Shown here: one piece after another, positions 12,959-61,211 of the stretch
Layout: each line of letters begins with the position of its first letter
Numbering within the stretch: the first letter of the stretch is position 1
Source: an uncultured Poribacteria bacterium
GTDB taxonomy: Bacteria > Poribacteria > WGA-4E > WGA-3G
Assembly: GCA_951828385.1 (NCBI GenBank)
Contig: OX639973.1
Location: forward strand, 2,241,561 to 2,305,560
DNA: 64,000 nt
Direction: 5' to 3'
The notes under the pieces: generated by a model
Told to the model about the DNA's origin: nothing
The model's database searches: none
The model's input: only the letters and a program-made list of their open reading frames with translations
Position numbers and translations under genes: made by a program

Positions 12959-12979
12959 TAAGGAGACGCACTACGAAAA

Positions 12980-44412: not shown

Positions 44413-46041
44413 TTACTTCCGAATTAACATCTTACGCGTCGCAGTAAACTGCCCAGCTTTGAGCGTATAGAAATAGACTCCACTTGCGACTGGCTCTCCG
44501 TGAGCATTCTTACCATCCCAATAGGCAGCACGGTCTCTACTCTGATAGACACCTGCAGGCATTTCGCCTAACGGCAAACTCCGAACTAAAGCACCGTTCG
44601 CAGTATGAATGAAGACAGCGACTTCCGCTGGTTGCGCCAACTGATAAGGTATCCAAGTCTCTGGATTGAAGGGGTTGGGGTAGTTTGCCAAGAGCACTGT
44701 TTTTGGGGGTGTCGGTCGTGCCATCCGTGTCCCAACTGCCAAAAAGCGTTCTAAGATCGCGATCGTCTGTGGATCCGCACCGACATCCTGTGCCTCTTGG
44801 ATCCACTGCTGGACATCTTCTGCAGTGAAGGAGAAATCGTGTAGATGCTGTGCAAGAATAGGAGCCGCTTGGGAATCTACTGGTGCTTGGGCATCCACTG
44901 CCTTAGCAACAACAATGAGGTCTTCAATATTAACGACCCCATCTTTGTTGACATCCGCGCGTGGGTTTGCGCCATCTACGACAGTTTTTCCGTAGTTCTC
45001 TCCCACCTCAATAATGTCAAGATATGTGACACTACCGTCCCCTGTTATATCAACCGCTGCGAGTGGCTCCCACAAGCGGATTGTGTCGTCATCACTGCCA
45101 CTCACAAGAAGTGACCCATCAGAGTTCCAAGCAATTGTATTAACACTAGCGGTATGCCCTTTCAGAGTGGCTTTGTGTGCGCCAGTGGTGGAGTCCCATA
45201 AGCGGATGGTATCATCGCTACTGCCACTGGCAAGGATTGCCTCGGTTGGATGGAATGCCAACGTATGGACGTTACCGGTATGCCCTTCCAAGACGTGCAG
45301 CGGGGAATCCGTGTCCGTTGGGTCCCAAATACGGATGGTGTCATCGTTGCTTGCACTCGCGAGCAGCGTTCCATCAGGACTCCACGCAACCGATCTAACA
45401 GTATGCGTATGTCCGCGAAGTGTAGCAATGTTGGCACCGTTGTCTGGGTTCCACAAACGGACGGTACGGTCTCTACTTGCACTGGCGAGCAGCGTTCCAT
45501 CAGGACTCCACGCAACCGACTCGACATCATTCCGATGCCCCCGCAGTGTCCGAACGGGTCGACTTTTCCATGCGTCCCATGTTAAATCCCAGATACGGAT
45601 TGTGTCGTCATTGCTCCCGCTGGCAAGGATGGAGCTCCCCGGTTTAAAGGACAGCGTATTGACAGTGTTTGTATGTCCTGTGAGGTAACCTCTTATGTCT
45701 CCGTCATCTGTGTAAGACATCCCAATATAAGGGCGGAAAAAGAGTCCGCCGGCATAAACGACAAAACGCGAGTCATGCGATGAGATCGCAATATCAGAGA
45801 TTAAGAAGAGATCCACTTCGGTATGCCAAGGTTGTGCACCCGTGTCAAGATCCCAAAAGCGAAGGTCGCTATCGCCTCCCACACTGATAAGTGTGCTATC
45901 GTCTTTGAATGCCACTGCAGAGACATGAATTTTATGCCCGCTGAGCGTCCGAGTATGGAAGTACTCTTCGGCAGCGGCAAAAGGTAAAGTAACTGTGAAA
46001 ATGGACAGTAGCGTTAAAATCAAAAGGCTTATTTTTTTCAT
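44413..46041 (-). CDS. Secreted WD40 beta-propeller protein with a dockerin-like repeat and a T9SS-type (Por_Secre_tail/FlgD-Ig-like) C-terminal domain
   Basis: Signal peptide, about 7 WD40 repeats (LRGHTHTVRSVAWSPDGTLLASASNDDTIRIWD etc.), dockerin-like DVNKDGVVNIEDLIVVAKAV, C-terminal NYPNPFNPETWIPYQL...GVYFYTLKAG. Confidence 0.8.
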   Translation of the reverse strand: MKKISLLILTLLSIFTVTLPFAAAEEYFHTRTLSGHKIHVSAVAFKDDSTLISVGGDSDLRFWDLDTGAQPWHTEVDLFLISDIAISSHDSRFVVYAGGLFFRPYIGMSYTDDGDIRGYLTGHTNTVNTLSFKPGSSILASGSNDDTIRIWDLTWDAWKSRPVRTLRGHRNDVESVAWSPDGTLLASASRDRTVRLWNPDNGANIATLRGHTHTVRSVAWSPDGTLLASASNDDTIRIWDPTDTDSPLHVLEGHTGNVHTLAFHPTEAILASGSSDDTIRLWDSTTGAHKATLKGHTASVNTIAWNSDGSLLVSGSDDDTIRLWEPLAAVDITGDGSVTYLDIIEVGENYGKTVVDGANPRADVNKDGVVNIEDLIVVAKAVDAQAPVDSQAAPILAQHLHDFSFTAEDVQQWIQEAQDVGADPQTIAILERFLAVGTRMARPTPPKTVLLANYPNPFNPETWIPYQLAQPAEVAVFIHTANGALVRSLPLGEMPAGVYQSRDRAAYWDGKNAHGEPVASGVYFYTLKAGQFTATRKMLIRK

Positions 46042-46120
46042 CTGAATGCATCCTTTCCCGAAAACACTTTCGGGTGTAGATAATTTATGTTGCCCTAAAT
46101 TGCTCAAACTTTCAGTCGTT

Positions 46121-46220: not shown

Positions 46221-49200
46221 TCAATCGTTTTTCTTCTCAAGCGCGGCATAAAACATCCCGCTCCGTTCGGTAACAATATAAAGCCTGTTACGCTTGACAG
46301 CAACAGAAATGACGCGGCTTGGTACGTTTGGCGAGATCTGTTCCCATCTGCCCCGAGTATCCAATTGATAGGCACCCGTATCGCCAGCACCATAAACGGT
46401 TATATCATCTACGGCAACTCGGGCTATGACGGTGTGTGTACCACCTTTATCGGTGATTGCGCGCCAATTTTCACCGTCTGCCGATGTTAAGACCCCCGCG
46501 TCTGTGGCGACATAAACCGTTGAACCCGCAAAAACAATATCGTTGAAATGTTCAAATCGAAGTGGCAGTGTTGCGGTCAGGTCTTTCCATGTGTTCCCGC
46601 TATCAAACGATCGGAACAGATGTCCATCCCGTTTGCCAACGTAGACGGTTTCACCTGAAACAGCCAGAACGAAATGATCGGGCCCCTCATGGTTAGTAGG
46701 TGCGTCAATGTCTACCAGCCCAGTGTCGAACCATTCAGGTTCGCCGCGTCTCCACCGCAGGAGCCGCCCCTGATATTCCACATAGAACGTATCACCGCTG
46801 ACTGCAAACGCGCTGTGAGATGCTATGGACTCGCGGGTTGTGTCTATCGATTTATCGGCTTTCTCAGGATCGTTAGGGGCAGCGTCGGGTATATTTCTTT
46901 CCGACATCTCTTGTGATGCAGTTTTTGGAGGCTCAATAGAAAGATTTTCACCCAAAACAGGGGCTTCTGGCATAAGCACCAGCACACCGCCATTCTTAGA
47001 AAGATGGAAGATGCGCTGCTCGGTACCTTCTATGTCTACGGAAAGTGCGGTGCCGATGCAGTAGAGTTTATCGTCAGAAATTGCCAGCTGCGAAGAACGG
47101 AGTAGAAGACCGACAGCCAATACCGATCCTAATTCTGGTGTTAATTGATCAGGGCTGAATCGCAGGTCTCTCCATGACATCCCACCGTCGGTGGATTTCG
47201 CGATATTTGTACCGGTATAGGCGTAGAGTGCGTTTTTGAATGCGACTAAGTTAGATATCTGGGTTCCGACCATGCCTGTCATAAACGGATGCCACGATTC
47301 GCCAGCATCGGTTGAACGGATAAGTCCAAAAGGACTGGCTTTGAACAGGATATTTTCGTTCATGCCAATAGCGGGGAATACACTCAGCATAAACGAATTC
47401 ATCATTGAAAGCGGATCCAATTTTTTGTATCCGTGGTTTGTCCATGTTTCGCCGCCGTCAGTCGATCGGCATTGGAAGCCGGTGTATCCCAATGCCCAAA
47501 GCGTTTTTCCAGCAGTAAGGACCTTAATGCCCGGGGATAGCATCGTCAAGACTGGCTCGCTTGTAGGTGTGATTTCAGTCCACGAATCGCCGAAATCGGT
47601 TGACCGGAAAATTTCCCACATAGACTGCCCGGCAGACACCTCTTCGCGTATTTCATCCTCTTTAAAGGCTCCCAAGTCGGGACCTGTCCCGACATAGAGG
47701 TTGCTTTCAGAAACCGCTAAGGAGTGGATAGCCTTAGTGGTCGTTAGCGGCAATTTTTCCCACATATCCATTGCCGAATTATGCCCTGGATTGATACGGT
47801 AGAGTCCCTGATTCGTTCCGATAAACATTGTGTTTTCAAGAGTAGCCAAAGCAAAGATTTTTCTATCCGTCACTTCACCACCGAGGGGTGTCCACTGCTG
47901 TCCCCTATCTTCGGATCGGAAAACACCTTTATCTCTCAGCAGGAGGTATAAGGCTTCATCCGTTACGGCCAATGCGACAGCAATACCTTCGGGGCGGGTG
48001 CCAATCGGCTCCCACATCTCGCCGCTATCGGTTGAGATAAGTACTTTATCATCAGAAATAAGATAAAGGGTTCCGTTTTGCTCCGCCATCGGTATCATGG
48101 GGGGTGCCTCCGTAGGTGTCTCCAAAGTTGTTGTAGGGCTGAGGAACGTCCATGCTCGTGTGTCTGGCGTTAATCTATAGACACCGAGACGCGAAGCGGC
48201 GTAGATATCGCCATTTGAACTTACCAGTAAGCCGCCTACGGGGCCGCTCGCTGGTACGCTCGCGGGTCTCCACTGCTGTGGTGTTGTCAGTGGTTCCTTT
48301 TCTATCTGCGCGACAGCAGGGACAACAGGCTCTGAAACTTGCGGCCCGGCACCGCTGCCCCGACCCGTGGTATCAGAACGTCCGGCTTGGTTCCGTAGGT
48401 CCGGTTCCGCCTGCGTATCAATAACAATGGGTGTGTCAATAATTTCAACAGTGGTTTCCGATTGGGCATTCAAGTTGTAAGGTCTCTGAAAGCGACTCAG
48501 GTATTGGGACCCGACACCGATCATCAGCATTATAAGAATGGTAGCGGTGCCAAAAGCGATCCAGGGTAGCAACGGTTTTCCAACCGAAGGTGGTGCTGGT
48601 TTGATGTCGGCAACTTGCTGCATAATACGCTCAATGAAATTGGCAGGCATCTGGACGTTTCCAAGCGTTTCGCTAATCAGGTGCTCTTCGGCTTGTAAAC
48701 GCTCCCGTGCCCGGCGAAGCCGACTTTTAATGGTGTTCACCGATACCCCTAAGAAATTGCCAATCTCCTTCGCCGTCATTTCACCGAGGTAGTAGAGCGT
48801 TACCACCGTCCGTTCACTCTCTGGCAATGTTTCCAGAAGCTCTTTGACGATTTCGTGGCGATGTTCCATCGCTTCCGCCTCCCGTTGCTCCGATACATAA
48901 CGTCTATAAGAAAATGCCTCTACGTCCGCTACAGATGTGTCATCCAGGGATTGCATCGCGGGTTTGTTGCTTTGATGCCACCTCTTGCAAAGATTACTCG
49001 CAATCACATAAAGCCATCCAGCAAACTGGCTGGGATTCCTCAGCCTTGCAAGGTTTTTGTATGCTTGGAGGAAGGCATCTTGGGCAATCTCTTCAGCGAT
49101 GTGAAAATCGCCAATCTTCCGCCACGCCAGCGCGTGAACGCTTTTTTGGTACTTTTGGACCAAAGCACTAAATGCCGCTTCATCACCCGACAAAATTCTG

Positions 49201-49229
49201 TGAATCAGTTGAACATCGTTTTCCACCAT
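46221..49229 (-). CDS. Membrane-tethered ECF sigma factor fused, via one TM helix, to a large extracytoplasmic BNR-repeat beta-propeller domain (paralog 1)
   Basis: N-terminal ~190 aa has sigma70 regions 2 and 4 (HIAEEIAQDAFLQAYKNL...; LGEMTAKEIGNFLGVSVNTIKSRLRRARERL). TM helix PLLPWIAFGTATILIMLMIGV. At least 8 Sx(D/S)xGxxW BNR motifs in the remaining ~800 aa. Start taken at MVENDVQ (49229) by homology with paralog 2. Confidence 0.8.
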   Translation of the reverse strand: MVENDVQLIHRILSGDEAAFSALVQKYQKSVHALAWRKIGDFHIAEEIAQDAFLQAYKNLARLRNPSQFAGWLYVIASNLCKRWHQSNKPAMQSLDDTSVADVEAFSYRRYVSEQREAEAMEHRHEIVKELLETLPESERTVVTLYYLGEMTAKEIGNFLGVSVNTIKSRLRRARERLQAEEHLISETLGNVQMPANFIERIMQQVADIKPAPPSVGKPLLPWIAFGTATILIMLMIGVGSQYLSRFQRPYNLNAQSETTVEIIDTPIVIDTQAEPDLRNQAGRSDTTGRGSGAGPQVSEPVVPAVAQIEKEPLTTPQQWRPASVPASGPVGGLLVSSNGDIYAASRLGVYRLTPDTRAWTFLSPTTTLETPTEAPPMIPMAEQNGTLYLISDDKVLISTDSGEMWEPIGTRPEGIAVALAVTDEALYLLLRDKGVFRSEDRGQQWTPLGGEVTDRKIFALATLENTMFIGTNQGLYRINPGHNSAMDMWEKLPLTTTKAIHSLAVSESNLYVGTGPDLGAFKEDEIREEVSAGQSMWEIFRSTDFGDSWTEITPTSEPVLTMLSPGIKVLTAGKTLWALGYTGFQCRSTDGGETWTNHGYKKLDPLSMMNSFMLSVFPAIGMNENILFKASPFGLIRSTDAGESWHPFMTGMVGTQISNLVAFKNALYAYTGTNIAKSTDGGMSWRDLRFSPDQLTPELGSVLAVGLLLRSSQLAISDDKLYCIGTALSVDIEGTEQRIFHLSKNGGVLVLMPEAPVLGENLSIEPPKTASQEMSERNIPDAAPNDPEKADKSIDTTRESIASHSAFAVSGDTFYVEYQGRLLRWRRGEPEWFDTGLVDIDAPTNHEGPDHFVLAVSGETVYVGKRDGHLFRSFDSGNTWKDLTATLPLRFEHFNDIVFAGSTVYVATDAGVLTSADGENWRAITDKGGTHTVIARVAVDDITVYGAGDTGAYQLDTRGRWEQISPNVPSRVISVAVKRNRLYIVTERSGMFYAALEKKND

Positions 49230-49279
49230 CAGCATTCTCCATGTCTCACGCATAAACGTGATTGTGTTTACATTCAAAT

Positions 49280-49380: not shown

Positions 49381-49575
49381 CAACACCGCAAAACCGCACC
49401 TACCGGACCTGGGAACTGAGACGGGATTCAAGAGGGTTTTGAAGTCCTCAAGGTTTCCGCGTAGTATCCGGTTCGGTTAGGAATGCAGGTCGCATTTGGG
49501 CGTGTACGCCGCGATGCACGTCGCATCTGGGCGTGTACGCCGCAAAAACCGAACCTACCGGGCCTGGGTCTGAAA
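49381..49575. repeat. Complex intergenic repeat region. Direct copies of CAAAACCGCACCTACCGGRCCTGGG flank a 2x direct repeat GTCGCATYTGGGCGTGTACGCCGC.
   Basis: 49389-49413 and 49545-49570 carry the flanking motif. The inner repeats are at about 49485 and about 49517. A further inverted copy of the flanking motif lies at 20643-20665. Confidence 0.6.
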
Positions 49576-49684: not shown

Positions 49685-50596
49685 TCAAAACGCTTCTGAC
49701 TTGACTTGGCCCCATGTCGTTGTTAAAGAGGTATCGGGACGAATTTCAAGTCCACCTTCAGGATTGCGATTAAGATCAACACCGGTTCCACCAATCACAG
49801 CAGCACCATTCATGCCGATGAGGGTCTTCCCATTCCCAGACGTATCTTCAAAGCGATCCGCGCCTTCCTTGTCATTGAAATCCCAGAGTGCTAACGTGTG
49901 TGCATCAGCAAAAAAACGAGGCGGTGGATTAAACGGATTGTCGCCCTGTTCGGCGCAGTCATACCGAGCGATATTTGAAAACCTTATCGCATCAATTTCG
50001 CCTTGAAAACTACTTACTTGGAATAACAACGCACCGTTAGGTGCCACAAACTTATCCTCACCATATCCGCCTACGACGAAATCTTGAACGCCTTCAGGTC
50101 TATTGATATGCAAAGACACCCTGTCCACAAGAGGAAGTCTCCGGCCTTGACTAATTCGATTGTTGGACGCATGACAAAGCATGCCATTCTTGAAAATGAT
50201 TGCTATATAGTTCCATTGATCTTTCTCGACTGCACTATCAGTTCCTGCAAGTCCGTCAGCTCTGTCTCCTGAAAGATATGCCTGACGATAACTGCAAAGT
50301 TGATTTTTTTCGAGTAGACACTGATCTCTTGCCTTTAATCCGATGGAAACTTGCTGAGTGAGAATAAGGTCTTTATCTTTTTGCTTCGGTTCATCTTTCG
50401 GATAGAACCATACTTCAACAGTAAACGCGTGGGTGCCTTCCGGGAAAATATGCCCATGTTCCGCAAAAGGGAGTATTGCATAGTCATCTTCACCATCCAA
50501 CGACAAAACACCACCGGACGGCTCGAAAGAAAGAACAGGTACAACTAAGCTGAACAATAACACCGTACTGAGTAAGCACTTAAAATTAATAAACAT
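49685..50596 (-). CDS. Secreted LamG/concanavalin-A-like lectin-fold protein with a C-terminal ...TTTWGQVK tail
   Basis: Signal peptide. LamG_3-like hallmarks (SLDGEDDYAILP...FTVEVWFYP...WNYIAIIFKNG). SD GAAGGAGAG. Confidence 0.65.
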   Translation of the reverse strand: MFINFKCLLSTVLLFSLVVPVLSFEPSGGVLSLDGEDDYAILPFAEHGHIFPEGTHAFTVEVWFYPKDEPKQKDKDLILTQQVSIGLKARDQCLLEKNQLCSYRQAYLSGDRADGLAGTDSAVEKDQWNYIAIIFKNGMLCHASNNRISQGRRLPLVDRVSLHINRPEGVQDFVVGGYGEDKFVAPNGALLFQVSSFQGEIDAIRFSNIARYDCAEQGDNPFNPPPRFFADAHTLALWDFNDKEGADRFEDTSGNGKTLIGMNGAAVIGGTGVDLNRNPEGGLEIRPDTSLTTTWGQVKSEAF

Positions 50597-50697: not shown

Positions 50698-51121
50698 CTA
50701 AAAGTTTGTGGTACGAATGTGTCTATTTATTTTAGGATTCACTATAACATATTTTTTCAGTTGTCCCCACGTCACTGCCAGTTTACCTTGGGGTTGAACC
50801 GATAAATTGCCGTGGTTCGGCACCTCTTCGCCCACAAAAAGAGAGTGTTCTGAACTAAAGGCAATCCATTGGCTGTCCGGAGACCAAGCCGGTCTTTTGC
50901 AGCCCCCTCGGTTCGTCAGCCGCTTCACATTTCCGCCATCTGCGTCTATTCTGTAGATGTCCATCTCCCCGTTGCGTTCGGCGATGAATGCGATCCACTT
51001 CCCATTCGGAGACCAAGCGGGCCATATATCTCTACTCTCGTGGAACGTCAACTGACGTTCTACATTTGTTCTCACGTCCCTCACATAAAAATAGAATTGT
51101 TACAATGATTAGAAATTTCAT
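50698..51121 (-). CDS. Exported PD40/TolB-like repeat protein (paralog a), frameshifted at a T5 run between the lipoprotein-type signal peptide and the PD40 domain. C-terminal ...VTWGQLKK tail.
   Basis: The ORF-track part 50698-51084 starts at GTG. Upstream in another frame, SD GGAGG + ATG 51119-51121 encodes MKFLIIVTILFLCEG... (lipobox-like). Deleting one T of tatttttat restores a continuous ORF. PD40 motifs WPAWSPNGKWIAF and PAWSPDSQWIAF. Confidence 0.6.
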
Positions 51122-51300: not shown

Positions 51301-53184
51301 CTAAAACGCATTTGCGACCATCACAAGGTCCAAAATGTTCACAACACCATCAAAGTTCAAATCAAATTTCAAATCGGAATCTGTTGAACTACCAAAAGCG
51401 TTCGCAACGATCACAAGGTCCAAAATGTTCACAACACCATCAAAGTTCAAATCTTCACGAGGCGTATTCACCATTTGTTCTAATTCTTCCCAAAACTCAA
51501 CATTTGAAGAGGTGCGATGCAGTATGGAAATCGCTTGTTGTATTTCCAGATGATGCTCAAAATAATACCGGATTGTCGGAAGCACCGGTACCTGTTTATA
51601 CGTCTTAATATGTGCATTCAATATTTCCAGTTCTTGTGCTTTATATCTGTCCCCCAAATAGGCAAAAGTACCGCTATAAGCAAGGGACCACTGCGAAAAT
51701 AAGAAATCCGTAATCGGGTGCGGATCTCCGTAATCCAAATTGTCCGCGGTCCCATAAAAAGCGACATACGGAGCTGTCACCGCGTGAATATATTCGCCAG
51801 AAAAAACAATATCTGGCATCGCTTCAATAAGTTCTTCATGTAAAAGCATGTTCCCTTGAATAGGTGTCAATCCATCAATTGTAGCGTGATTTCTGATAAG
51901 CCCGTTAGCGTCAAGATGGATGGCATCAATGTTATATGTCTCTTGCACGTTTTTCAATAATTGCACGAAATATTCTCTATAACTTGAAGCTGCAGGATTT
52001 ATATAGGCGGGGCCTCCCAGTTCTAATTCCCATCCCTGTATGTTTCCATCGCTATCTCGATAGAAATAGGGTTCCCACTCAGCGTAACGCGGGTGGTCTT
52101 GAGCAACAAACGGAAAACCTGCATAGACCATTACCCTAAACCCGCGAGCCTTTGCCTCAGATACAAACGCCCCGAAGTGTTCCTGTCTCCAACCGCCGCG
52201 ACAGTAAATTAACACATTTTGCGGGTTGATCTGTTGTGGTAAAAAATCTAACATTCTAATGTAGTTACGAGTCAGTGAACAGTACATAACAACGAGTTGA
52301 ATATCTTTAACCCACGCCGGCTTATGAGCGAGACGCGATGCATTTCGCTCCATCATCCCTTGACGATACCTTTCCGCAGGCACCTGCCAATCACCCCTAT
52401 ATGTATTAAATCTCCAAATTGCGGAGGTAATATGTTGACGATTTTCAAAAGGAAGAAAATTGTGCGTGTTAAAAGCAATAGCGAAGAGATTTGGCTTTTT
52501 TCTCTCTGGCCACTGACCGAGTGCTTTAAATTGATCTGTTTCATCCTCACTCATCACAAAACATCCGCCCAATGTTCCTTGCACGACGGCAAGAGGGGCT
52601 TCCCATAGACCCGGATACGTCCAATACAAATCCATCGTGTGTTGTCCATTCATTATGTTTCCGCTGCGCCCTGGCACAATCGGAGATACCTGATCATAAT
52701 CTAAATTTCCGATTCCCCATCCGATAGTGGAAATTCCTGTTTGATCAGAAAAACCTTCCTGTCTAATTATTAAATCTCCAGTGAGCACCTCAATAATCAC
52801 CCACATAATAAGTGTGCTCTGATGCCACCGAGCCGTCAGTTTCGCCGCTAAGGGTGAAATCTTTTCAACTTCCAAGGCATCAGCACCACCTATTTCCCAC
52901 TCAGGTTCCAAGTAATCTTCGCCGTCTATTTCTGACTCATGGAACCGGGGCCCACGCATCCCTGAAAGTCTTGCATCTGGTCTTCCTGAAAGTGTATACG
53001 TTTCTTGAGTGAGTTTGTTATGCACATGTATGACGTTACCATTTTTAAACCGCACCTGATAGCGATCCGTCTCAGCGAAAACTTCACCATCTTCACTGAT
53101 CGTCAAAGTGTTTGACAACGCAGCGGGTACTAAAACAAACTGCAATATCAGCATATAAACACATTTTGTCCAAACATTTTTCAT
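51301..53184 (-). CDS. Secreted putative glycoside-hydrolase-like (TIM-barrel-type, family unassigned) protein with two C-terminal dockerin repeats
   Basis: Signal peptide MKNVWTKCVYMLILQFVLVPAALS. Catalytic-looking central region. C-terminal DLNFDGVVNILDLVIVANAF x2 (dockerin type-I-like). Confidence 0.65.
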   Translation of the reverse strand: MKNVWTKCVYMLILQFVLVPAALSNTLTISEDGEVFAETDRYQVRFKNGNVIHVHNKLTQETYTLSGRPDARLSGMRGPRFHESEIDGEDYLEPEWEIGGADALEVEKISPLAAKLTARWHQSTLIMWVIIEVLTGDLIIRQEGFSDQTGISTIGWGIGNLDYDQVSPIVPGRSGNIMNGQHTMDLYWTYPGLWEAPLAVVQGTLGGCFVMSEDETDQFKALGQWPERKKPNLFAIAFNTHNFLPFENRQHITSAIWRFNTYRGDWQVPAERYRQGMMERNASRLAHKPAWVKDIQLVVMYCSLTRNYIRMLDFLPQQINPQNVLIYCRGGWRQEHFGAFVSEAKARGFRVMVYAGFPFVAQDHPRYAEWEPYFYRDSDGNIQGWELELGGPAYINPAASSYREYFVQLLKNVQETYNIDAIHLDANGLIRNHATIDGLTPIQGNMLLHEELIEAMPDIVFSGEYIHAVTAPYVAFYGTADNLDYGDPHPITDFLFSQWSLAYSGTFAYLGDRYKAQELEILNAHIKTYKQVPVLPTIRYYFEHHLEIQQAISILHRTSSNVEFWEELEQMVNTPREDLNFDGVVNILDLVIVANAFGSSTDSDLKFDLNFDGVVNILDLVMVANAF

Positions 53185-53218
53185 AAATGCATCTCTTTCT
53201 TGTGTTATTTCTCTTTCT

Positions 53219-55248
53219 CTATTCAAACGCATTCGCTACAATCACCAAGTCCTGTATATTGACAACGCCATCACCATTTATATCCGGTGCCGTTTCCCCA
53301 AACGCATTTGCGACGATGACCAAATCCTGGATATTCACGACACCATCACCATTAACATCCGCAGTGGGAGGCGTTTCCGACTTCAAATAGATTTCGCCAT
53401 CCAAATCTGCCAACGTATGCTGGCGTTGATTCTCTACACCGCTTGCCCAGCCGGAGACCTCCTGCGGAAGTTCTATCTCCTGTTCCTTACCAGAGCGATT
53501 ATACACCGCCCAACCATTGGTGAATTCCCGGATAAACAACCCCTCTCGGTTCTCATAAAGCTGCGCTTTCGTTTCATTGCCACCCACCGGACGACCGAGG
53601 TCGGCGTTCCAGAAATCGTACCAGTAAAACTCATCATAATGGAACGTATAAACCGATGCATTGGAATGCGTGAGTGCCATTGTCGTGAAAAACCTGTTGC
53701 GTTGCTTTGCTTCGGGACCGTCGATCGGTTTGAAAGGTGACAACTCACCTTCTAAAAGATTTAATGTTGGTTTCCTCAGCTTCGTTCATTCCACAAAAGC
53801 GCATCTTCTATGTCACGGATCCCAGACAAGGTATAGCCCTCAGGTTCACCCGGGTGAAAGTCATAAAGATCACGTCCTGTTTCCATGTAGATACCGTTGA
53901 CATAGGGTGCCCAACGGCGCTGCAGTTTACGGCGGTTGTTGTTAACGAGTATAAAAAAGTCATCGGGGACAACTTCGCGAATGCGTCGGAGGATTGTGTC
54001 CATCGCAATAGATTCTTCTTCTGCGGTATAGATTCCCTGTAGCCTCTTTTTTCCTTCGCCCCAATGGTCAAAAAAGATACCATCATAGAGTCCACACTCG
54101 CTAATCGCTTTTGCCTGTTGCACAATTTGTTCTATGACAGCAGGTTTCGTGAAGTCAATAAGATGATCTATTAGTTCTTCCATGGCATGCCTGCGCCAAA
54201 CTGATGTTAGACGGTTTCCTTCTTTATCGCGTAGCCAACCGTCCCAATCTTCGCCATAAAAATCGGGGTGCCCGCTCTCAAAATACAGCCCTACAAGCAA
54301 AATCATATTAGGATTTCGGCGAAGGACTTCGGTGTGTGTTTCTATCATTTTATCCATCTGTCCTGTCCGTAAGGTTGCGTTTATACCCTCAGGAGACAGC
54401 CATATTGTTCTCACATCATTTCCGAGTGGGCCAAAAGGGTGCACTCCAAAAATAAAGTCAAACACCGTGAAAATTTCTATAGTGTGTTGATCGTGCTCCG
54501 CAAGCGTGTGGGATTTTACCCAATTAGAAGGAAAGTTTCTGTTTTGAATGCGTTCTGCCAAAGGGAGTTTGTACGAAAAATCGTCAAATAAAGATAAACA
54601 CCATCTCTCAAATGAGTTTTTTATTGCTCCTGCGAAATGCTTGATCTGGGAAAAATCCTCAATAGGGTTGTCTATTATTTCCAAAACTTTGAGTTTGGTT
54701 AGACCGGTTATTGCGGATAGGTCTGAAACCTGATTCTCGCGCAATAGCAATACTTCTAAATTTATCAGTCCCGCCAGGGGTGTTAGGTCTGAAATCTGAT
54801 TCTCGCTCAATTGCAATTCTTTTAAATTTATCAGTCCAGTGAGGGGTGTTAGGTCTGAAATCTGGGTGTCATAAAATTCGAGCGTGTGTAGTTTGACCAG
54901 TCCAGCGAGGGGCGTTAGGTCTGAAATGTTACATCGATTGATACTTAGAAACTTCAAATTAACGGCGTGTTGGAGACCTTCAAGGTTCTCAATTTCATCA
55001 CGTTCGCTTATAAGCGTGTGTAATCGTTGCATGTCCGCGATTGTTAGGCTTTCCACGTCCAACGCTTCTGATACAATTCTCCGTAGGTGTGGATCCGGCA
55101 TCCAGTCTTGGACATCTTCTGCATGGACGGAAGCATTATAGACAAGTATGCCCACAATCGACGCGAGGAACAACTGAAACCAAAATGATTTACGATATAT
55201 TTCTTTCATTGTCATAAGATAATCTATAATCTCCTTTTCAAAACGCAT
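53219..55248 (-). pseudogene. Disrupted paralog of the LRR-hydrolase-dockerin gene (two ORF fragments, 53776-55248 and 53219-53743, separated by a frameshift)
   Basis: Fragment 1 ends ...ALLWNERS*. The -1 frame then continues as KLRKPTLNLLEGELSPFKPIDG..., colinear with ...TLLWSEKNFREPQINALEGWGLESEPLDSP... of the intact paralog 55238-57268. A single nucleotide near 53787-53790 restores the frame. Confidence 0.65.
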
Positions 55249-57229
55249 TCGCTACAATCACTAAATCCTGTATATTCACAACGCCATCACCATTCAGATC
55301 AGGTGCCGCTTCCCCAAACGCATTCGCCACAATAACTAAATCCAGTACATTCACCGTGCCATCACCATTGACATCCGCAGTAGGAGGCGTTTCCGACTTC
55401 AAATAGATTTCGCCATCCAAATCTGCCAACGTATGCCGGCGTTGATGCTCCACACCGCTCGACCAGCCAGAGACCGTTTCCGCAAATTCAATCTGTTGTT
55501 CGGAGCCGGACCGATTATACACTGCCCAGCCGTTAGTAAACTCCCGGATAAACAACCCCTCGCGATCCTCATAAAACTGCCCTTTAGTTTCATCACCACC
55601 CACCGGCCGACCGAGGGGTGCCTCGTAGAAGCGGTACCAGTAATGTTGATGTTGGTGGTCATGGGATGTTCCGATGGCGTGTTCTTCTGAATGTCCTGCA
55701 TAGAGTTCATAAGCGTGCGTGTGTACGGGACCGTTAATCCCTGTTACATACTGGACGTAACCGTCGGAATGCGTCAAATTCAGCGTTGTGAAAACACGCA
55801 TCCACTGCCGGTTTTTAGGACTGTCAAGCGGTTCGCTCTCAAGTCCCCATCCCTCAAGGGCATTTATTTGTGGTTCTCGGAAGTTCTTCTCTGACCAGAG
55901 TAACGTGTTTTCAATTTCGCGCAGTCCTGCGTATGTGTAACCACTTTTGTAATCCCGTACGGTTTCCATAAATGTTCCATTCACATAGGAAGCCCATCTT
56001 GGAATTTTACCTCGATTCGTATTTACCATTATCAGAAAGTTATCACCCACTGCCTTGCGAATTCCCTTGAGAATTCTGTCTCGTGCAGTGTGTTCTTCCT
56101 CTAAAGTCTTGGAAGCTTCGAGTCTTGGCTGTTCATTCCAGTGATCGAGAAATATACCGTCATATAACCCGCATTTTGAAACTTCAATTGCCTGTTGGAC
56201 GAACATATCTTGGATTTCAGGATGTGTATAATCAATGAGATATACACCGTTATTCCCGTCCTCCACCCTCTTACCTGATGTGTCTCGCAACCAGTACTCC
56301 CAATCTTCAGGATACTCATTTGGATGTCCATAGTAGTAACGGATGACAGCAAGAAATATCATATTGGGGTTTTGAGAAAGCAGCGCGTTTCTTGTTGACT
56401 TTGCGCGTTCTATATCTCCAATTAGTTTCCAACCGTTGGACGTAGATTCCCATTGAGTACCAAAGTAATCCGGGTAAGAAAAATATAGATGGTGGTATGT
56501 GAGTAGTTCGCTCCATGTTCCTGGCAAGTTGATAATGTTATGCCATGCTGCAAATACCCGCGGTGTGTTTATGTTCTTCAACCTAACTTCGACAGAATCT
56601 CGAGGTAAAGCACATATATTGTGGGATGTGAGATTCAATGCAATCAATTCTGTAACATCTGCGCTGTTTCCATAAGTCTGCACATTTTGAAGTCTTGGGA
56701 GTTTCAAAATCGGTGTAAAATCTTCTATCTGATTTTCTTGCAACTTCAATTCTTCCAGGTTTATTAACCCTGCGAGCGGGGCAATATCCGAGATGTGATT
56801 CTTAGACAACTTTAAGACCCGTAAGTTCTCAAGCCCCACAAGCGGTGTCAAATCCGACACTTCACTTTTAACAATAGCCAAGAATTCTAAGTTCTCAAGC
56901 CCCGCAAGTGGTGCTAAATCTGAGACTTCACTTCTGTCGATAACCAAGACTCTAAGATTCACGGCATACTCAAGTCCTCTTAAACTCCTAATCTCGTGTT
57001 CTATTTCTATTAAGATAAGATTATGTAATCCTGTCATGTCTCCAGGATGTATAGGTATCTCATCAGGGATGCCGAGTTCTTCACGGACAGCCTGCCGAAG
57101 GTTTGGATCGGGCATCCAATCCTCGGCATCTTCTGCATAGGTAAAAGCATTATAGACAAGTATGCTCACAACAGACGCGAGGAGCAACTGAAACCACAAG
57201 GATTTACGATATATTTTTTTCATTGGCAT
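55238..57229 (-). CDS. Secreted protein with N-terminal leucine-rich repeats (internalin-like), a central hydrolase-like domain and two C-terminal dockerin repeats
   Basis: Signal/TM segment KSLWFQLLLASVVSILVYNAFTYA. LRRs (VSDLAPLAGLENLEFLAIVKSEVSDLTPLVGLENLRVLKLSKNHISDIAPLAGLINLEEL). Motif GLYDGIFLDHWNE. Dockerins DVNGDGTVNVLDLVIVANAF and DLNGDGVVNIQDLVIVANAF. Start codon uncertain (M14 or M16). Confidence 0.7.
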   Translation of the reverse strand: MPMKKIYRKSLWFQLLLASVVSILVYNAFTYAEDAEDWMPDPNLRQAVREELGIPDEIPIHPGDMTGLHNLILIEIEHEIRSLRGLEYAVNLRVLVIDRSEVSDLAPLAGLENLEFLAIVKSEVSDLTPLVGLENLRVLKLSKNHISDIAPLAGLINLEELKLQENQIEDFTPILKLPRLQNVQTYGNSADVTELIALNLTSHNICALPRDSVEVRLKNINTPRVFAAWHNIINLPGTWSELLTYHHLYFSYPDYFGTQWESTSNGWKLIGDIERAKSTRNALLSQNPNMIFLAVIRYYYGHPNEYPEDWEYWLRDTSGKRVEDGNNGVYLIDYTHPEIQDMFVQQAIEVSKCGLYDGIFLDHWNEQPRLEASKTLEEEHTARDRILKGIRKAVGDNFLIMVNTNRGKIPRWASYVNGTFMETVRDYKSGYTYAGLREIENTLLWSEKNFREPQINALEGWGLESEPLDSPKNRQWMRVFTTLNLTHSDGYVQYVTGINGPVHTHAYELYAGHSEEHAIGTSHDHQHQHYWYRFYEAPLGRPVGGDETKGQFYEDREGLFIREFTNGWAVYNRSGSEQQIEFAETVSGWSSGVEHQRRHTLADLDGEIYLKSETPPTADVNGDGTVNVLDLVIVANAFGEAAPDLNGDGVVNIQDLVIVANAF

Positions 57230-57379
57230 AGGTATAACTAAAGTTTGGACAATCGATTTGTGTATCAAGTAGCGTTTTCAAGGGGCTTGGTATTTTTCTG
57301 TGAGTTCTGTACCCAGGCAAACGCGGAAAAAACTATAACAGGTTAGTTACACAAGAGACACAGCCTAACAGGAGACCAT

Positions 57380-57663: not shown

Positions 57664-60603
57664 CTATTTACGAGATAAGTTGTCTCCCGCTTCCGCAAGC
57701 GGAATCTGAAACATCCCGTTGTGTCTGGTAACAATATAAAGTGTGTCGTTTTTAACAGCGAGTGAGAGGACTTTATCTGGCACGCTTGGAAAAATCTGTT
57801 CCGATTGTCTACGGTCCTCTAAACGATAGACACCGGCATCACCAGCCCCATAAATTGTGGTACCATCAACAGCAAATCTGTCTATAACGATACGCTCGCC
57901 CGCGGTATCGGTCAGGACACGCCAATATGCGCCGGTTTGTGAAGCTAAAATACCTCTGTCCGTTGCGACGTAAGCCGTTGAATCGACAAAAACGATCTCC
58001 TTGAAATGGGTAAAACGTAGGGGCAGGCTGGGGGTAATGTCGCGCCAACTGTCGCCGCCATCAAGCGACTGAAAGAGCCTACCGTCTCGCTTACCGACGT
58101 AGACGGTTTCCGCTGAGACCGCCAATTTGAACCCATTTTTCGAGCCGTCATCAGCCCGTTTCCCGGTATCTATTAATCCGGTATTTTTCCATTCAGGATC
58201 ACTCGGTTTCCAATTAAAGAGTTTCCGCTTGTATTCCACGTAGAAAGTATCACCACTGATTGCAAACGCACCGGCTCTCTCATAGTTTTCACGAAAGGAC
58301 AAATCCCTCATCAATTTACGGTCCTTTTCAGGATCACCAGAAAAGGACATTCCCTGTGCTACCGCAATCTCCTTTAGCACCGCAGGAGACAGATTTCTCT
58401 TACCAAAATCGGGTACGCCTTGAACAGGGATAAACGTATTATCACCAGATAAATGGAAGATACGGAGGTTGTCTCGCCCAGACTCAATAGCATAAAGAAC
58501 GTCGTCAACAATCACAAATTTTGAATCAGTATCGAAGTCGGTGTTAGGAGATTCTCTTTTTGAGGGTTCAGATGCTTGTTCGGCGTAATCAACTGGAACA
58601 GGTGTCCAAGATTCGCCGTCATCAGCAGATTGAACCATATTGCCGTTAGCATGTACATAGAGGCTATTATTGAATACCACCAGATCTCGTGCTCCGGTGC
58701 CGACCATGCCGTCCATAAAATGATGCCACGATTCACCCGCGTCGGTTGTGCGATAGAGACCGGAGTTTCCGGTCTTGTAGAAGGTATTTTTATCGAATGC
58801 TAAATAGGCATAGGTATTTGAGACAGTGCCAAGATTTGTCCAAGTTATCCCGTCATCTTTTGAACAAAATAGCCTGAGACCGCGTGCTAAAATTGTTTCG
58901 CCTCTAACAGCCATTGCCATAGCAGATGCTGCTATAAGGGGATATTTTTTGTCTGTAGGCGTTATCTCGGTCCACGACGTTCCGAGATCGTTTGATTTGA
59001 AAATTCTGCCTGCCCGTGACAGATCAAGTCGCATGTGATCCTCAACTTTGCGACCTGTTCCGACATAGAGAGTATCTTCAAAGGCCACCAAGTCGTGTAC
59101 GGCTCTGGTTGTATCTACCGGTAACTGTTCCCAAACATCGGCGTTGAGGCGGTAGAGGCCTCTGTCTGTGCCAGTGAATACCGTCTCTTTAATCGCAGCG
59201 AGTTTGTAAATTTCTCTACCCGTTAATCCCGTGTTCACGGGTGTCCAGTGTTTTCCAGCATCGGTGGATCGGAAAACGCCTCTCTTCCAAAGGGCGAGAT
59301 ACATCGTAACATTCGCGGGTGCGTTGCGTCCATCTGCTGCATCTACCACGATGAGTTCAGCAGGGTGTCCTTCTGGCCGGTGCCCTAATGTATTCCACGT
59401 CTCGCCATCATCGGTTGAAGCTAATAGTTCATTGCCAGCGATGATATAGAGGGTGCTTGCATGCTCTGCTATAGGCACTCGCGGCATTTCGTTTGGAATA
59501 TTGACGTTTACGGGTGTCCAGAGAGTTGCATCTGCTGTTAACCTGTAGATGCCTATTGACGAATTAACGTAGAGTGTTTTGTTAGATGTCTCAAAGATGT
59601 CAAACACGAATCCGCCTGGCGGTCCGCCCATCTGTGTCCACGGCGCAGTCGAAAATGTAGCGGAGAAATCCGCCGTTGTTGTGGTTACGACAGCCGCCTC
59701 AGCAGTCTGTAAGCCGGTCCCGATGTTTTTGGTGGCGGTCGTCGTGCGTCCGACCTGATTTCGGACAGCTGGTTTGGAAAGCAGATGGAGCATGATAGGT
59801 GCGTCAACGATTTCAACCGTCGGTTCAGATTGTGCTTCAAAACTGTATGGCTGCTGGAAGCGCGCGAGATACTGATGATGCGTACCGAGCATCAAAACTA
59901 TCAAAAGCACAGCCGCGCCAAAAGCCGCCCACGGTAGCAACGGTTTCGCGACCTGCGGCGGTGTCAGTTTCAGATCGGCGACGTGCCGCATGATGTGCTC
60001 TGTTAGGTGAGTGGGTAATTGGAAATTCCCAAGCATCTCACGAATTAAGGATTCTTCGTTCCGCGCCTGTAAACGCTTCCGCGCCCGTTGAAGCCGACTC
60101 TTGATTGTGTTCGCGGATACGCCTAAGAAGTTGCCAATTTCTTTGGCAGTCATCTCGCCGAGATAGTGGAGCGTTACGACGGTACGTTCACTTTCGGGTA
60201 GTTTTTTCAGGAGTTCCTTAACGATTTCGTAGCGGCGTTCCGCGGCTTCCGTTTCTCGTTGCTCTAATACATAATGTTTATAAGAAGATTTTTCTACTTC
60301 TGTGCGAGATATTTTTTCCAGTGATAGCATTGGCGGTTTTTTATTTTTGAACCACCGAATGCACATCCGATTCGTAATTACATATAACCACCCTGCAAAT
60401 TGGTTGGGGTTTTGGAGTGTCGTGAGTTTTTTGTGGACTTGGAGGAAGGTATCTTGTGTAATCTCTTCAGCGATATGAAAATCGCCAACTTTCCGCCACG
60501 CGAGTGCGTGGACACCCTTTTGGTATTTTCGGACTAAAGCAGTGAACGCCGCCTCATCACCTGCTAAGGTTCTCTGGATTAATTGAACATCATTTTCTAC
60601 CAT
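57664..60603 (-). CDS. Membrane-tethered ECF sigma factor fused to a BNR-repeat beta-propeller extracytoplasmic domain (paralog 2)
   Basis: N-terminus MVENDVQLIQRTLAGDEAAFTALVRKYQKGVHALAWRKVGDFHIAEEITQDTFLQ... is highly similar to paralog 1. TM PLLPWAAFGAAVLLIVLMLG. BNR motifs STDDGETW, STDAGKHW, SNDLGTSW, SKDDGITW, TTDAGESW, SADDGESW, SLDGGDSW. Its SD AAAAAGGAG lies inside the upstream PD40b tail. Confidence 0.8.
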   Translation of the reverse strand: MVENDVQLIQRTLAGDEAAFTALVRKYQKGVHALAWRKVGDFHIAEEITQDTFLQVHKKLTTLQNPNQFAGWLYVITNRMCIRWFKNKKPPMLSLEKISRTEVEKSSYKHYVLEQRETEAAERRYEIVKELLKKLPESERTVVTLHYLGEMTAKEIGNFLGVSANTIKSRLQRARKRLQARNEESLIREMLGNFQLPTHLTEHIMRHVADLKLTPPQVAKPLLPWAAFGAAVLLIVLMLGTHHQYLARFQQPYSFEAQSEPTVEIVDAPIMLHLLSKPAVRNQVGRTTTATKNIGTGLQTAEAAVVTTTTADFSATFSTAPWTQMGGPPGGFVFDIFETSNKTLYVNSSIGIYRLTADATLWTPVNVNIPNEMPRVPIAEHASTLYIIAGNELLASTDDGETWNTLGHRPEGHPAELIVVDAADGRNAPANVTMYLALWKRGVFRSTDAGKHWTPVNTGLTGREIYKLAAIKETVFTGTDRGLYRLNADVWEQLPVDTTRAVHDLVAFEDTLYVGTGRKVEDHMRLDLSRAGRIFKSNDLGTSWTEITPTDKKYPLIAASAMAMAVRGETILARGLRLFCSKDDGITWTNLGTVSNTYAYLAFDKNTFYKTGNSGLYRTTDAGESWHHFMDGMVGTGARDLVVFNNSLYVHANGNMVQSADDGESWTPVPVDYAEQASEPSKRESPNTDFDTDSKFVIVDDVLYAIESGRDNLRIFHLSGDNTFIPVQGVPDFGKRNLSPAVLKEIAVAQGMSFSGDPEKDRKLMRDLSFRENYERAGAFAISGDTFYVEYKRKLFNWKPSDPEWKNTGLIDTGKRADDGSKNGFKLAVSAETVYVGKRDGRLFQSLDGGDSWRDITPSLPLRFTHFKEIVFVDSTAYVATDRGILASQTGAYWRVLTDTAGERIVIDRFAVDGTTIYGAGDAGVYRLEDRRQSEQIFPSVPDKVLSLAVKNDTLYIVTRHNGMFQIPLAEAGDNLSRK

Positions 60604-61211
60604 CCGGATTCTCCTTTTTCAGTTGTCCCCAGGTCGTCGATAGCAACGCCGGCTGCGGCGAGACCGGCAACGCATACGCTGGATTAAACCAATCCGCGTT
60701 GGCGTTATCACCCCGGCGCGTGAGTTGTTCTGGAACACCGTCGTCCGAAGCGATTTTGAAGAGTTGTCTGAAACCACGAACCCGTTTATCGTAAATGAGT
60801 TCATTCCCGTGCGGTGCCCAGGCAGGATTAGACGCGAAGTTGCCGCCTCCATCTGCAATCTTCCGGAGTCCGCTACCATCTTGGTTCACAACATAGACCC
60901 CCATAGTGTGTCCTATCTCTTGCCTACCTGTCCAAAAAAAGGCTATCTGCGCGCTATTGGGTGCCCAAGCTGGGTCAAACATCCCAATCTTCCCCGGAAG
61001 AATTTTCTCTTCTACATGCGTTTGTAGATTAATAATCTCGACCCTGACGTTCGGTGCTTGGAGATTTCCGTTTTCAGCCCAAACGAACTTGGCTGCCATA
61101 AAGGCTATCTCAGAACCGTTAGGAGACCACGCATGCTTTGGCAAAAAGTGGACGCATCATTCCACACATCAGCATCCAGAAGATGATAGAAAAAACCAAC
61201 TTCAATCTCAT
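60590..61211 (-). CDS. Exported PD40/TolB-like repeat protein (paralog b), frameshifted at a T5 run after the signal peptide. C-terminal ...STTWGQLKK tail. Its 3' end overlaps the ECF-fusion 2 start by 14 nt.
   Basis: The ORF-track part 60590-61144 starts at TTG. Upstream, GGAGGAATCGGT-ATG (61209-61211) encodes MRLKLVFSIIFWMLMCGMMRPLFAKAC... in the +1 frame. Removing one T of ctttttgcc fuses the two. PD40 motifs AWSPNGSEIAF, PAWAPNSAQIAF, PAWAPHGNELIY. Confidence 0.6.

Follow-up and report, generated by a model that had tools for sequence, protein, structure and literature searches.

Why should three predicted proteins of different folds, encoded in an uncultured Poribacteria bacterium, end in nearly the same residues? 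The question arose from a 64-kb stretch of DNA (contig OX639973.1; hereafter the window), where an initial annotation had noted a shared C-terminal pattern, TWGQ[LV]K, on three genes designated LamG, PD40a and PD40b. Our analysis confirmed that this shared ending is real, and indicated that it is a short, strictly C-terminal tag (…KLTTTWGQLK plus a few residues) carried by hundreds of small, predicted secreted proteins of unrelated folds in Poribacteria, with a sister form (…TWGxIKxLYR) in Eisenbacteria-like soil bacteria. The tail looks like a protein-sorting or docking signal, and we found it described in no database or paper that was searched.

The tail in the window

The features of the window that bear on this question, all on the minus strand, are as follows.

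49685..50596 (-): LamG (Laminin_G_3), an intact predicted secreted protein of 303 aa with an N-terminal signal peptide and the C-terminal tail
49688..49750 (-): LamG tail, LEIRPDTSLTTTWGQVKSEAF-COOH, with the core TWGQVK at 49700-49717
50698..51084 (-): PD40a, a 128-aa chimeric remnant without a signal peptide, two PD40 blades fused to the tail of a DUF1080-type gene
50752..50832 (-): PD40a tail of DUF1080 type, GEEVPNHGNLSVQPQGKLAVTWGQLKK, with the core at 50755-50772
60590..61144 (-): PD40b, the C-terminal 184 aa of a ~320-aa PD40 propeller family, lacking the N-terminal ~150 aa and with them the signal peptide; its stop codon overlaps the start of ECF-BNR2
60614..60673 (-): PD40b tail, ALPVSPQPALLSTTWGQLKK, with the core at 60617-60634
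46221..49277 (-): ECF-BNR1, an ECF sigma factor fused through a TM helix to a BNR/Asp-box beta-propeller ectodomain, directly downstream of LamG; the probable true start is the MVENDVQLI motif at about 49229
57664..60603 (-): ECF-BNR2, a second such fusion, directly downstream of PD40b
44413..46107 (-): a WD40 protein with a T9SS type-A-like C-terminal domain (TIGR04183, 24.3 bits against a cut-off of 23), a different C-terminal tag in the same gene cluster
51301..57268 (-): GHL-like and LRR proteins ending in tandem dockerin repeats (PF00404, Dockerin_1), a third kind of C-terminal tag in the cluster

In the six-frame translation of the window, TWGQ[LVI]K occurs exactly three times, 4 (LamG), 18 (PD40a) and 8 (PD40b) residues before a stop codon, whereas 100 block-wise shuffles gave no match. 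The three C-termini given in the initial annotation were correct, although the interval it reported, 49685-49760, covers only the LamG tail. It was also right that no transmembrane helix follows the motif, as only 4-18 hydrophilic residues remain and none can follow.

The description of all three as exported proteins was wrong for the two PD40 fragments, as only LamG is intact. The LamG body matches Pfam PF13385 (E=1.9e-5) and has 369 homologues, the named ones all Candidatus Poribacteria; about 113 of 120 listed homologues, down to 57% identity, keep the core motif, most of them ending ...SLTTTWGQ[VI]KSE[SA]F. PD40b aligns to residues 154-321 of a 321-aa homologue, has stop codons upstream, and belongs to a family whose full-length relatives of 312-342 aa have signal peptides and whose consensus ending is DWFDPAYALPVSPQPxLLTTTWGxhKKx. 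In PD40a, residues 4-82 are two PD40 blades, while residues 85-113 are 90% identical to the last 29 aa of a 3-keto-disaccharide-hydrolase (DUF1080) protein, P0127 in our set. A related contig, L014, shows the intact gene order: PD40 x3, DUF1080, LamG, PD40, ECF-BNR. The three genes had been placed immediately upstream of ECF-BNR fusions, which is correct for LamG and PD40b, but PD40a lies one gene further. The codons of PD40a and PD40b, described as nearly identical, share a 17-nt identity, TGGGGACAACTGAAAAA, with dissimilar flanks; from tail codon usage such an identity has about a 3% chance per pair.

Distribution and conservation

The initial annotation proposed that absence from orthologues, or restriction to a single recent local duplication, would count against the observation, and neither condition was found. 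A scan of genomes from 185,579 species with the pattern L-x-T-T-W-G-Q-h-K gave 118 loci, of which 104 are titled Poribacteria and 107 hold tail ORFs. The hits in Undibacterium, Crinalium, Verrucomicrobiales, Treponema, Desulfobacterales and Marinobacter lack any tail ORF and are chance DNA matches. The loci held 188 full-length tail proteins of 205-400 aa, 176 of them (94%) with a signal-peptide-like N-terminus, although this call is a crude heuristic and not SignalP. Their bodies fall into at least 15 unrelated clusters, including Laminin_G_3, 3keto-disac_hyd (DUF1080), PD40, Kelch and CBM9, and the genes come in tandem arrays of up to seven.

The core motif lies within 10 aa of the C-terminus in 178 of 179 occurrences and is never internal. 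In Poribacteria the consensus is [LF][LF]x-V-x-P-x-x-K-L-[TA]-T-T-W-[GAS]-x-[LIV]-K followed by 0-8 residues (mode 2-4), often basic; of 197 tails, 195 have 0-10 residues after the invariant K, mostly polar or basic. The genome scan pattern fixed L, T, T, W, G, Q and K, and the regular expression W, G and K, such that conservation at those positions is partly ascertainment. All synonymous codons are used at every conserved tail position, with frequencies close to those of the gene bodies, indicating that selection acts on the protein. AlphaFold gave confident bodies but pLDDT below 50 for the tails in the two unrelated families modelled. In LamG the core (about residues 50-240) mostly has pLDDT 76-95, with a dip near residues 160-190, while residues 242-303 are below 50; about 50 low-confidence residues separate the tail from the fold.

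A metagenome scan for T-W-G-x-h-K-x-h-Y-R-stop gave 129 matches on Eisenbacteria-like contigs, every one of which closes an ORF, the complete ones running about 170-440 aa. From these, 113 proteins fall in 64 unrelated clusters, and 98 of 106 N-complete proteins have predicted signal peptides. Profile comparison indicated that the two tails are related (probability 90.5%, E=1.4e-6), across phyla of about 48% and 55-74% G+C. The residues after the invariant K differ, however, being hydrophilic and variable in Poribacteria and the amphipathic xhYR in Eisenbacteria-type proteins, and the two forms may therefore not work identically. Bodies of the sister set match choice-of-anchor V and J, GloVer, ScyF (a PEP-CTERM protein), and rhombosortase- and myxosortase-dependent M36 families, which elsewhere carry known sorting signals.

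No Pfam or NCBIfam model covered the tail when bare tails and 72 and 40 full proteins were searched. A profile search with a padded tail recovered only five short LamG fragments, because candidate collection failed for so short a motif. Literature searches for the literal motifs, for Poribacteria or Eisenbacteria with C-terminal or secretion terms, and for type IX secretion returned nothing relevant, and Kamke et al. 2014 (PMC3909097) mention only TIGR04183 domains. When non-tail neighbours were compared between the two lineages, the only gene family to recur next to tail genes in both was that of T9SS-CTD-bearing proteins, the most frequent non-tail neighbours in each, and no receptor, protease or transporter was identified.

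A putative sorting or docking tag

Three readings of the shared ending had been offered, a ligand or degron for the ECF-BNR sensor, a secretion or anchoring tag, and a recombination scar, and this interpretation is partly supported, in that the evidence favors the second. We suggest, at a probability of about 0.5, that the tail is a short, linear, transmembrane-less C-terminal tag on Sec-exported proteins. In this view, after export and removal of the signal peptide the flexible tail would hang off a small beta-rich binding module (LamG, DUF1080, PD40, Kelch or CBM9) and would be recognised in trans by a common partner in the periplasm or at the outer membrane, which would localise, dock or process the protein, in role resembling a T9SS C-terminal domain, a dockerin or a CTERM sorting signal. 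The three copies in the window would belong to a phylum-wide family, itself a variant of a wider TWGxhK tail whose Eisenbacteria-type form ends ...TWGxhKxhYR-COOH, and the neighbouring ECF-BNR genes most likely co-regulate some of these gene arrays rather than encoding the receptor. The conservation of the tail, its strict C-terminal position, the export signals, the diversity of bodies, protein-level selection, low structural confidence and taxonomic spread are shown by the sequence and model data, and together they fit a C-terminal localisation or docking tag as a functional class rather than a homology family; the sorting or docking function, any dependence of localisation on the tail, and the existence of a dedicated receptor are inferred, by analogy and position only.

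A bolder possibility, which we consider tentative, is that the tail represents a previously unrecognised class of bacterial sorting signal, "TWGxhK-CTERM", of ~15-20 residues, with its own undiscovered recognition or processing machinery at the outer envelope. It would be shared by Poribacteria, Candidatus Eisenbacteria and Latescibacterota, and probably other uncultured phyla, and would direct a large part of their small secreted lectin- and propeller-type proteins to the cell surface; the invariant Lys may be a processing or attachment site. C-terminal sorting signals have repeatedly led to new envelope machineries, such as sortases, exosortases, rhombosortases and the T9SS. This tail is abundant, conserved across phyla and exclusive to protein ends, yet fits none of them, and therefore, if the sorting reading is right, probably points to an unknown localisation pathway in lineages that cannot be cultured. 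In Poribacteria it tags the LamG, PD40, Kelch and DUF1080 "eukaryote-like" binding proteins that are thought to mediate interaction with the sponge matrix, and it may bear on the old puzzle that Poribacteria have T9SS-type C-terminal domains but no known Por genes. A simple C-terminal pattern now identifies this secretome, and makes a phylogenetic-profiling search for the partner directly feasible.

Alternative explanations

The alternative that survives best, though it is unlikely as the general function, is that free tails of secreted proteins bind the BNR or Kelch ectodomain of the neighbouring ECF-sigma fusions and trigger release or activation of the sigma factor. The ECF-BNR family is the second most frequent non-tail neighbour family, present in 16 of 118 loci. 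In all 12 loci with BLAST-confirmed fusions, plus the window, the fusion gene is on the same strand as a tail gene and adjacent to it or within a few genes, and such loci carry more tail genes (2.42 against 1.53 per 8 kb). However, only 12 of 118 tail loci hold such a sensor gene, about 90% having no ECF fusion within the 8-kb piece, and the sister tail has no such neighbour in 491 kb of Eisenbacteria-type contigs. The ectodomain gives partial PF15902 Sortilin-Vps10 hits, but these cover only generic Asp-box repeats (profile positions 2-60 of 446). Its best NCBIfam match is a glycosylhydrolase-like BNR family, which points to a carbohydrate signal, and a PDB sequence search gave only marginal hits, to Ycf48/HCF136 and a designed propeller. 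A tag carried by at least 15 unrelated families would be an odd specific inducer, and adjacency is equally explained by regulon membership; a local link, probably co-regulation, nevertheless stands.

It is also unlikely that the tail is an in-plane anchor, a short amphipathic, aromatic-plus-basic segment that sticks to a membrane surface, LPS or peptidoglycan without a protein receptor, like the C-terminal amphipathic helices of PBP5 and PBP6. AlphaFold weakly predicts a helix for the tail in both families modelled, our helical-wheel reading of the Eisenbacteria form T-W-G-x-V-K-A-L-Y-R places W, V, L and Y on one face and K and R on the other, and post-K residues in Poribacteria are rich in R and K. 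Membrane-binding helices tolerate much sequence variation, though, whereas T, W, a small residue and K are nearly fixed here across phyla, suggesting a specific protein partner. The Poribacteria form has too few hydrophobic residues after the K (often TRRD, SESF or a single K) to make an amphipathic helix, and the T-T-T run favors a strand.

More doubtful is a degradation or quality-control tag read by a periplasmic S41/Prc-type protease, which would set the lifetime of these proteins. The motif is defined relative to the free C-terminus, and the window encodes an S41 C-terminal processing peptidase at 15509-16960, but these peptidases are near-universal housekeeping enzymes and this one is 33 kb away and unlinked. 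Known Prc/Tsp signals are non-polar C-termini, whereas these tails end in K, R, D or F after hydrophilic residues, and a conserved degron on large paralogous arrays of binding proteins has no obvious rationale.

An intrinsic structural element, such as a capping strand or hairpin, or a donor strand that lets tandemly encoded paralogues oligomerise, is similarly improbable. The upstream residues (h-x-V-x-P-x-x-K-L-T-T-T-W) look like a beta-hairpin and the genes lie in tandem arrays, but the same motif follows jelly-roll, 6-7-bladed propeller, Kelch and CBM9 bodies and many unannotated folds, and AlphaFold docked it onto the body in neither family modelled.

A recombination scar or module-shuffling hotspot is effectively refuted by the free variation of synonymous codons, the unrelated flanks of the 17-nt identity and the amino-acid-level conservation between phyla, even though the arrays do show rearrangement, including the foreign tail kept by PD40a, tail-only remnants and "signal peptide + tail" mini-ORFs.

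Comparison with known C-terminal signals

The type IX secretion C-terminal domain, type A (TIGR04183 / Por_Secre_tail), is likewise a transmembrane-less C-terminal tag on exported proteins of diderm bacteria, and it is found in the same genomes and neighbourhoods, at 44413-46107 in the window, in 23 of 118 Poribacteria loci and in 17 of 120 metagenome loci; a PorU-like C25 peptidase also lies next to an Eisenbacteria tail array. The T9SS CTD, however, is a folded beta-sandwich domain of 70-100 aa, whereas this tail is about 15-20 aa and predicted unstructured. NCBIfam gave no tail hit, and hhalign of the tail against Poribacteria and Eisenbacteria CTDs gave a probability of 0.1-0.2%, where CTD against CTD was recognised at 99.8%, so that a truncated CTD was rejected. 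The CTD proteins here are long (about 280-1500 aa, most over 450), in contrast to 170-440 aa for tail proteins, and Kamke et al. 2014 (PMC3909097) found no Por structural genes in Poribacteria.

C-terminal peptides are read by PDZ or propeller domains in other systems, as with the OMP YxF tails that activate DegS in the sigma-E pathway and the neurotensin C-terminus in the sortilin Vps10 propeller. The resemblance would lie in a free C-terminal peptide acting as a ligand, with a genomic link to an ECF sigma factor that has an extracytoplasmic beta-propeller, but the tail is far more widespread than the ECF fusions and its motif is unrelated to YxF. Nor does it fit the outer-membrane-protein beta-signal, a terminal aromatic residue in a G-x-x-aromatic-x-aromatic context on a beta-barrel, as the bodies are soluble lectin-like or propeller domains and the last residue is K, R or D in 118 of 197 tails and F in only 28.

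Dockerin modules are C-terminal add-ons that dock diverse secreted modules to a common partner, and dockerin-tagged proteins are encoded in the same cluster of the window. Genes with T9SS-like CTDs or dockerins lie near tail genes in both lineages. A dockerin is a duplicated Ca-binding segment of about 60 aa in total (PF00404); the tail has no such repeat, and Pfam found dockerin in the neighbouring ORFs but not in any tail protein.

With the CTERM-type sorting signals (PEP-CTERM/exosortase, LPXTG/sortase, GlyGly-CTERM/rhombosortase, MYXO-CTERM, PGF-CTERM) the tail shares a short signature at the extreme C-terminus of predicted Sec-exported proteins, occurrence on many unrelated body domains, and expansion in particular lineages, and the bodies of the sister set match the very families that carry these signals elsewhere. 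No sortase, exosortase or rhombosortase gene recurs in the 118 Poribacteria and 120 metagenome loci, and no NCBIfam model matches the tail. In the CTERM systems a hydrophobic transmembrane helix and a basic cluster follow the signature, because the sorting enzyme sits in the cytoplasmic membrane, whereas here the signature is followed by only 0-8 hydrophilic residues.

The shared C-terminal motif within the window

Six-frame translation of the window (48% G+C) gave exactly three matches to TWGQ[LVI]K, all on the minus strand and lying 4, 18 and 8 residues before a stop codon, whereas none appeared in 100 composition-preserving shuffles. The shared ending reported in the initial annotation is therefore real, and the three C-termini it gave are correct, but it described all three proteins as exported, and only the first of the following is intact and has a signal peptide:

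49685-50596, minus strand: intact LamG protein with a signal peptide
50698-51084, minus strand: "PD40a", a 128-aa chimeric remnant
60590-61144, minus strand: "PD40b", a 184-aa 3' remnant

PD40b aligns to residues 154-321 of a 321-aa homologue and is preceded by stop codons in all frames, indicating that it is a 3' remnant without an export signal. PD40a is a chimera, in which residues 4-82 are two PD40 blades, 49% identical to an internal part of a PD40 protein, and residues 85-113 are 90% identical to the last 29 residues of a 275-aa 3-keto-disaccharide-hydrolase (DUF1080) protein. A related contig, L014, shows the intact gene order PD40 x3, DUF1080, LamG, PD40, ECF-BNR (the last being an ECF sigma factor fused to a BNR propeller), and the window copy therefore looks like a deletion derivative of such an array. 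Another strain (contig L001) carries different remnants at the same place. Arrays of tail genes decay and rearrange a great deal, as seen in the two window remnants, at 7691-7990 of L001, in the sequences designated P0124 and P0146, and in a 41-aa ORF of locus L067; the examples include a chimera of two genes, a 3' remnant, tail-only stubs in two frames, and mini-ORFs in which a LamG signal peptide is joined almost directly to the tail. The tail end is what tends to survive.

Conservation and distribution of the tail

The source organism is a Candidatus Poribacteria bacterium, and about 113 of 120 listed LamG homologues, down to 57% identity, keep the core motif, most of them ending ...SLTTTWGQ[VI]KSE[SA]F. 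A profile built from the three window tails and searched against 1.84 billion representative proteins found 37 significant hits belonging to LamG, DUF1080 and PD40 families. A pattern scan of one genome per species (185,579 species) for L-x-T-T-W-G-Q-h-K gave at least 118 loci. Of these 118 loci, 104 are titled Poribacteria and 5 more are "uncultured bacterium" contigs, each of which holds a tail ORF. One each comes from Latescibacterota (...TFPTTWGQIKSLYR, then stop) and Eisenbacteria (...NLHTTWGQLKQRFR, then stop), and both are real C-terminal tails, although taxon names of MAG proteins may include binning errors. The remaining hits lack any tail ORF and are chance matches.

The loci hold 188 full-length tail proteins of 205-400 aa (median 276), of which 176 have a signal-peptide-like N-terminus by a crude heuristic; ORF starts were also called heuristically. 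With the tail removed, the bodies fall into 15 single-linkage clusters, and Pfam searches of 72 representatives found Laminin_G_3 (23), PD40 (10), 3keto-disac_hyd (8), Kelch (5), CBM9 (4) and DUF6242 (2), with many having no hit. The logo from 197 distinct tails is [LF][LF][VAP]-V-[EPTS]-P-x-[GD]-K-L-[TA]-T-T-W-G-Q-[LIV]-K, followed by 0-8 residues (mode 2-4) rich in R and K, and variants with W-A or W-S also exist. The DNA patterns and regular expressions used here fixed several motif positions, so conservation at those positions is partly ascertainment. The core T[TL]W[GAS]x[LIVM]K occurs 179 times in 248,000 residues; 178 of these occurrences lie within 10 residues of the C-terminus and none is internal.

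Every synonymous codon is used at the conserved positions, at roughly body-like frequencies, indicating that conservation is at the peptide level. The codons of PD40a and PD40b, which the initial annotation had called nearly identical, share a 17-nt identity with unrelated flanks, and this is unremarkable. An AlphaFold model made with a 62-sequence alignment gives a confident LamG core, but residues 242-303, including the tail, have pLDDT of about 30.

A sister tail in other phyla

Endings of the form ...WGxIKxLYR occur in candidate phyla, and the two non-Poribacteria genome hits matched them, so we scanned metagenome contigs for T-W-G-x-h-K-x-h-Y-R-stop. The scan gave at least 120 contigs and at least 129 matches. 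Every match closes an ORF, and the complete ORFs run about 170-440 aa, on contigs of mostly 53-74% G+C, with the consensus ...C..TP[VTA]xxx[ST]TWGx[IVL]Kx[LIM]YR-COOH. Among these, 113 proteins fall into 64 unrelated clusters, and 98 of 106 N-complete proteins have signal peptides by heuristic calling. Named relatives are Candidatus Eisenbacteria and one Methylomirabilota MAG.

The bodies match choice-of-anchor V and J, GloVer, ScyF and ScyE, and rhombosortase- or myxosortase-dependent M36 families, to which Pfam adds NHL, LTD, CHRD, beta-helix, CBM4_9 and cupredoxin. These are families that in other lineages carry recognised C-terminal sorting signals, but no model matches the tail itself. 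AlphaFold of one Eisenbacteria family gives a confident body (mostly pLDDT 83-97) and a tail below 50. Profile-profile comparison links the two tail types (probability 90.5%, E=1.4e-6) and shows no relation of either tail to the T9SS-like C-terminal domains of the same genomes (probability 0.1-0.2%), whereas those domains are homologous between the two lineages (99.8%).

Genomic neighbourhood and the ECF-BNR genes

The neighbourhood of the tail genes in the window, together with one unlinked peptidase gene, includes the following:

46221-49277, minus strand: ECF-BNR fusion (ECF-BNR1)
57664-60603, minus strand: ECF-BNR fusion (ECF-BNR2)
44413-46107, minus strand: WD40 protein with a T9SS type-A-like C-terminal domain (TIGR04183, just above cut-off)
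53219-53743, minus strand: 174-aa ORF with a dockerin end
53776-55248, minus strand: 490-aa LRR ORF
55238-57268, minus strand: intact 676-aa LRR-dockerin protein
61398-62771, minus strand: 457-aa protein with no Pfam or NCBIfam hit
15509-16960, plus strand: S41 C-terminal processing peptidase (Prc/Ctp family, TIGR00225, E=4e-93)

The two fusion proteins, of 979 and 1018 aa, are single polypeptides in which an ECF sigma factor is joined through a TM helix to a large extracytoplasmic BNR/Asp-box propeller. In the 118 scanned 8-kb pieces this family is the second most frequent non-tail neighbour family, present in 16 loci, of which twelve are BLAST-confirmed fusions. In all twelve loci and in the window, the fusion gene is on the same strand as a tail gene and adjacent to it or within a few genes, and it is sometimes followed by four or preceded by six tail genes. 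Most of the fusions carry BNR/Asp-box propellers, but two variants (locus L011, 2402-4300; locus L053, 1270-3369) carry a Kelch ectodomain, which in L011 is 59% identical over 304 aa to a secreted tail-bearing Kelch protein (locus L026, 6262-7344), so sensor domains and secreted proteins are paralogues. About 90% of tail loci nevertheless lack such a gene, and no ECF fusion lies near the sister tails in 491 kb. These loci were selected for having tails, so the counts do not give an unbiased view of whether all ECF fusions have tail neighbours. We read the link as operon or regulon organisation of some arrays, and not as the function of the tail.

The 407-bp spacer between LamG and ECF-BNR1 holds a tandem direct repeat (49489-49541, minus strand), GGCGTACACGCCCA[A/G]ATGCGAC x2, spaced 31 nt apart, and two copies of CCGGTAGGT[G/T]CGGTTTT (49390 and 49545), a third copy of which lies at 20645. 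None is expected by chance, and they may be a small intergenic repeat element or a regulatory site. The 457-aa protein appears to be internally duplicated and is a conserved neighbour upstream of the ECF-BNR2-type gene in another Poribacteria genome too (locus L081, 213-1616). The 490-aa LRR ORF and the following 174-aa ORF look like the two halves of a paralogue of the intact LRR-dockerin protein next door, probably a frameshifted or split gene. Next to a second LamG tail-gene pair in the same species (contigs L002-L005, around 12939-14075 and 19237-20361) lie two membrane proteins with weak Peptidase_A24/Arc_PepC (prepilin-peptidase-like) hits, together with glycosyltransferases.

Proteins with T9SS-like C-terminal domains are the commonest neighbours of tail genes in both Poribacteria and Eisenbacteria-type contigs, and are the only family that recurs next to tail genes in both lineages. 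In one Eisenbacteria contig (L244, JABFRW010000089.1, 5218-16789), a tandem array of three to five YR-tail paralogues is followed by two PPIase (rotamase) genes and a PorU-like C25 peptidase of at least 1349 aa (NF033707, E=1e-52, below the family cut-off). These are leads, not evidence. S41 peptidases are a class of enzyme that reads free C-termini, but the one in the window is unlinked to the tail genes and is only a candidate.

Proposed role of the tail

The tail follows a Sec signal and a small beta-rich binding module, is strictly terminal and flexible, is under peptide-level selection, is shared by unrelated folds in at least three phyla, and sits where other lineages place sorting signals. 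These properties emerge from the sequence comparisons and structure predictions themselves, whereas a function in localisation or docking, and the existence of a partner, are inferred without experimental support. The best explanation, to which we assign a probability of about 0.5, is a localisation or docking tag recognised in trans. The near-invariance of T, W, a small residue and K argues for a protein partner, as yet unidentified, rather than generic membrane affinity. The interpretation in the initial annotation was thus partly supported: of the readings it offered, the secretion or anchoring tag is favoured over a ligand or degron for the neighbouring ECF-BNR sensor, and a recombination scar is rejected on the codon usage.

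Comparison with known C-terminal signals

The tail is absent from Pfam and from NCBIfam release 20, and no description of it was found in the literature that could be searched. The main Poribacteria genomics paper, a 2014 single-cell study, notes only TIGR04183 domains and reported no Por structural genes (PMC3909097). The tail is not a T9SS C-terminal domain, as judged by its anatomy, its low-confidence AlphaFold prediction and the profile comparison. It is not a CTERM or sortase-type signal, because no TM helix follows. It is not a dockerin, nor is it an OMP beta-signal. We therefore place it among C-terminal sorting tags, as a form distinct from each of these signals, with a fair chance of marking a new pathway.
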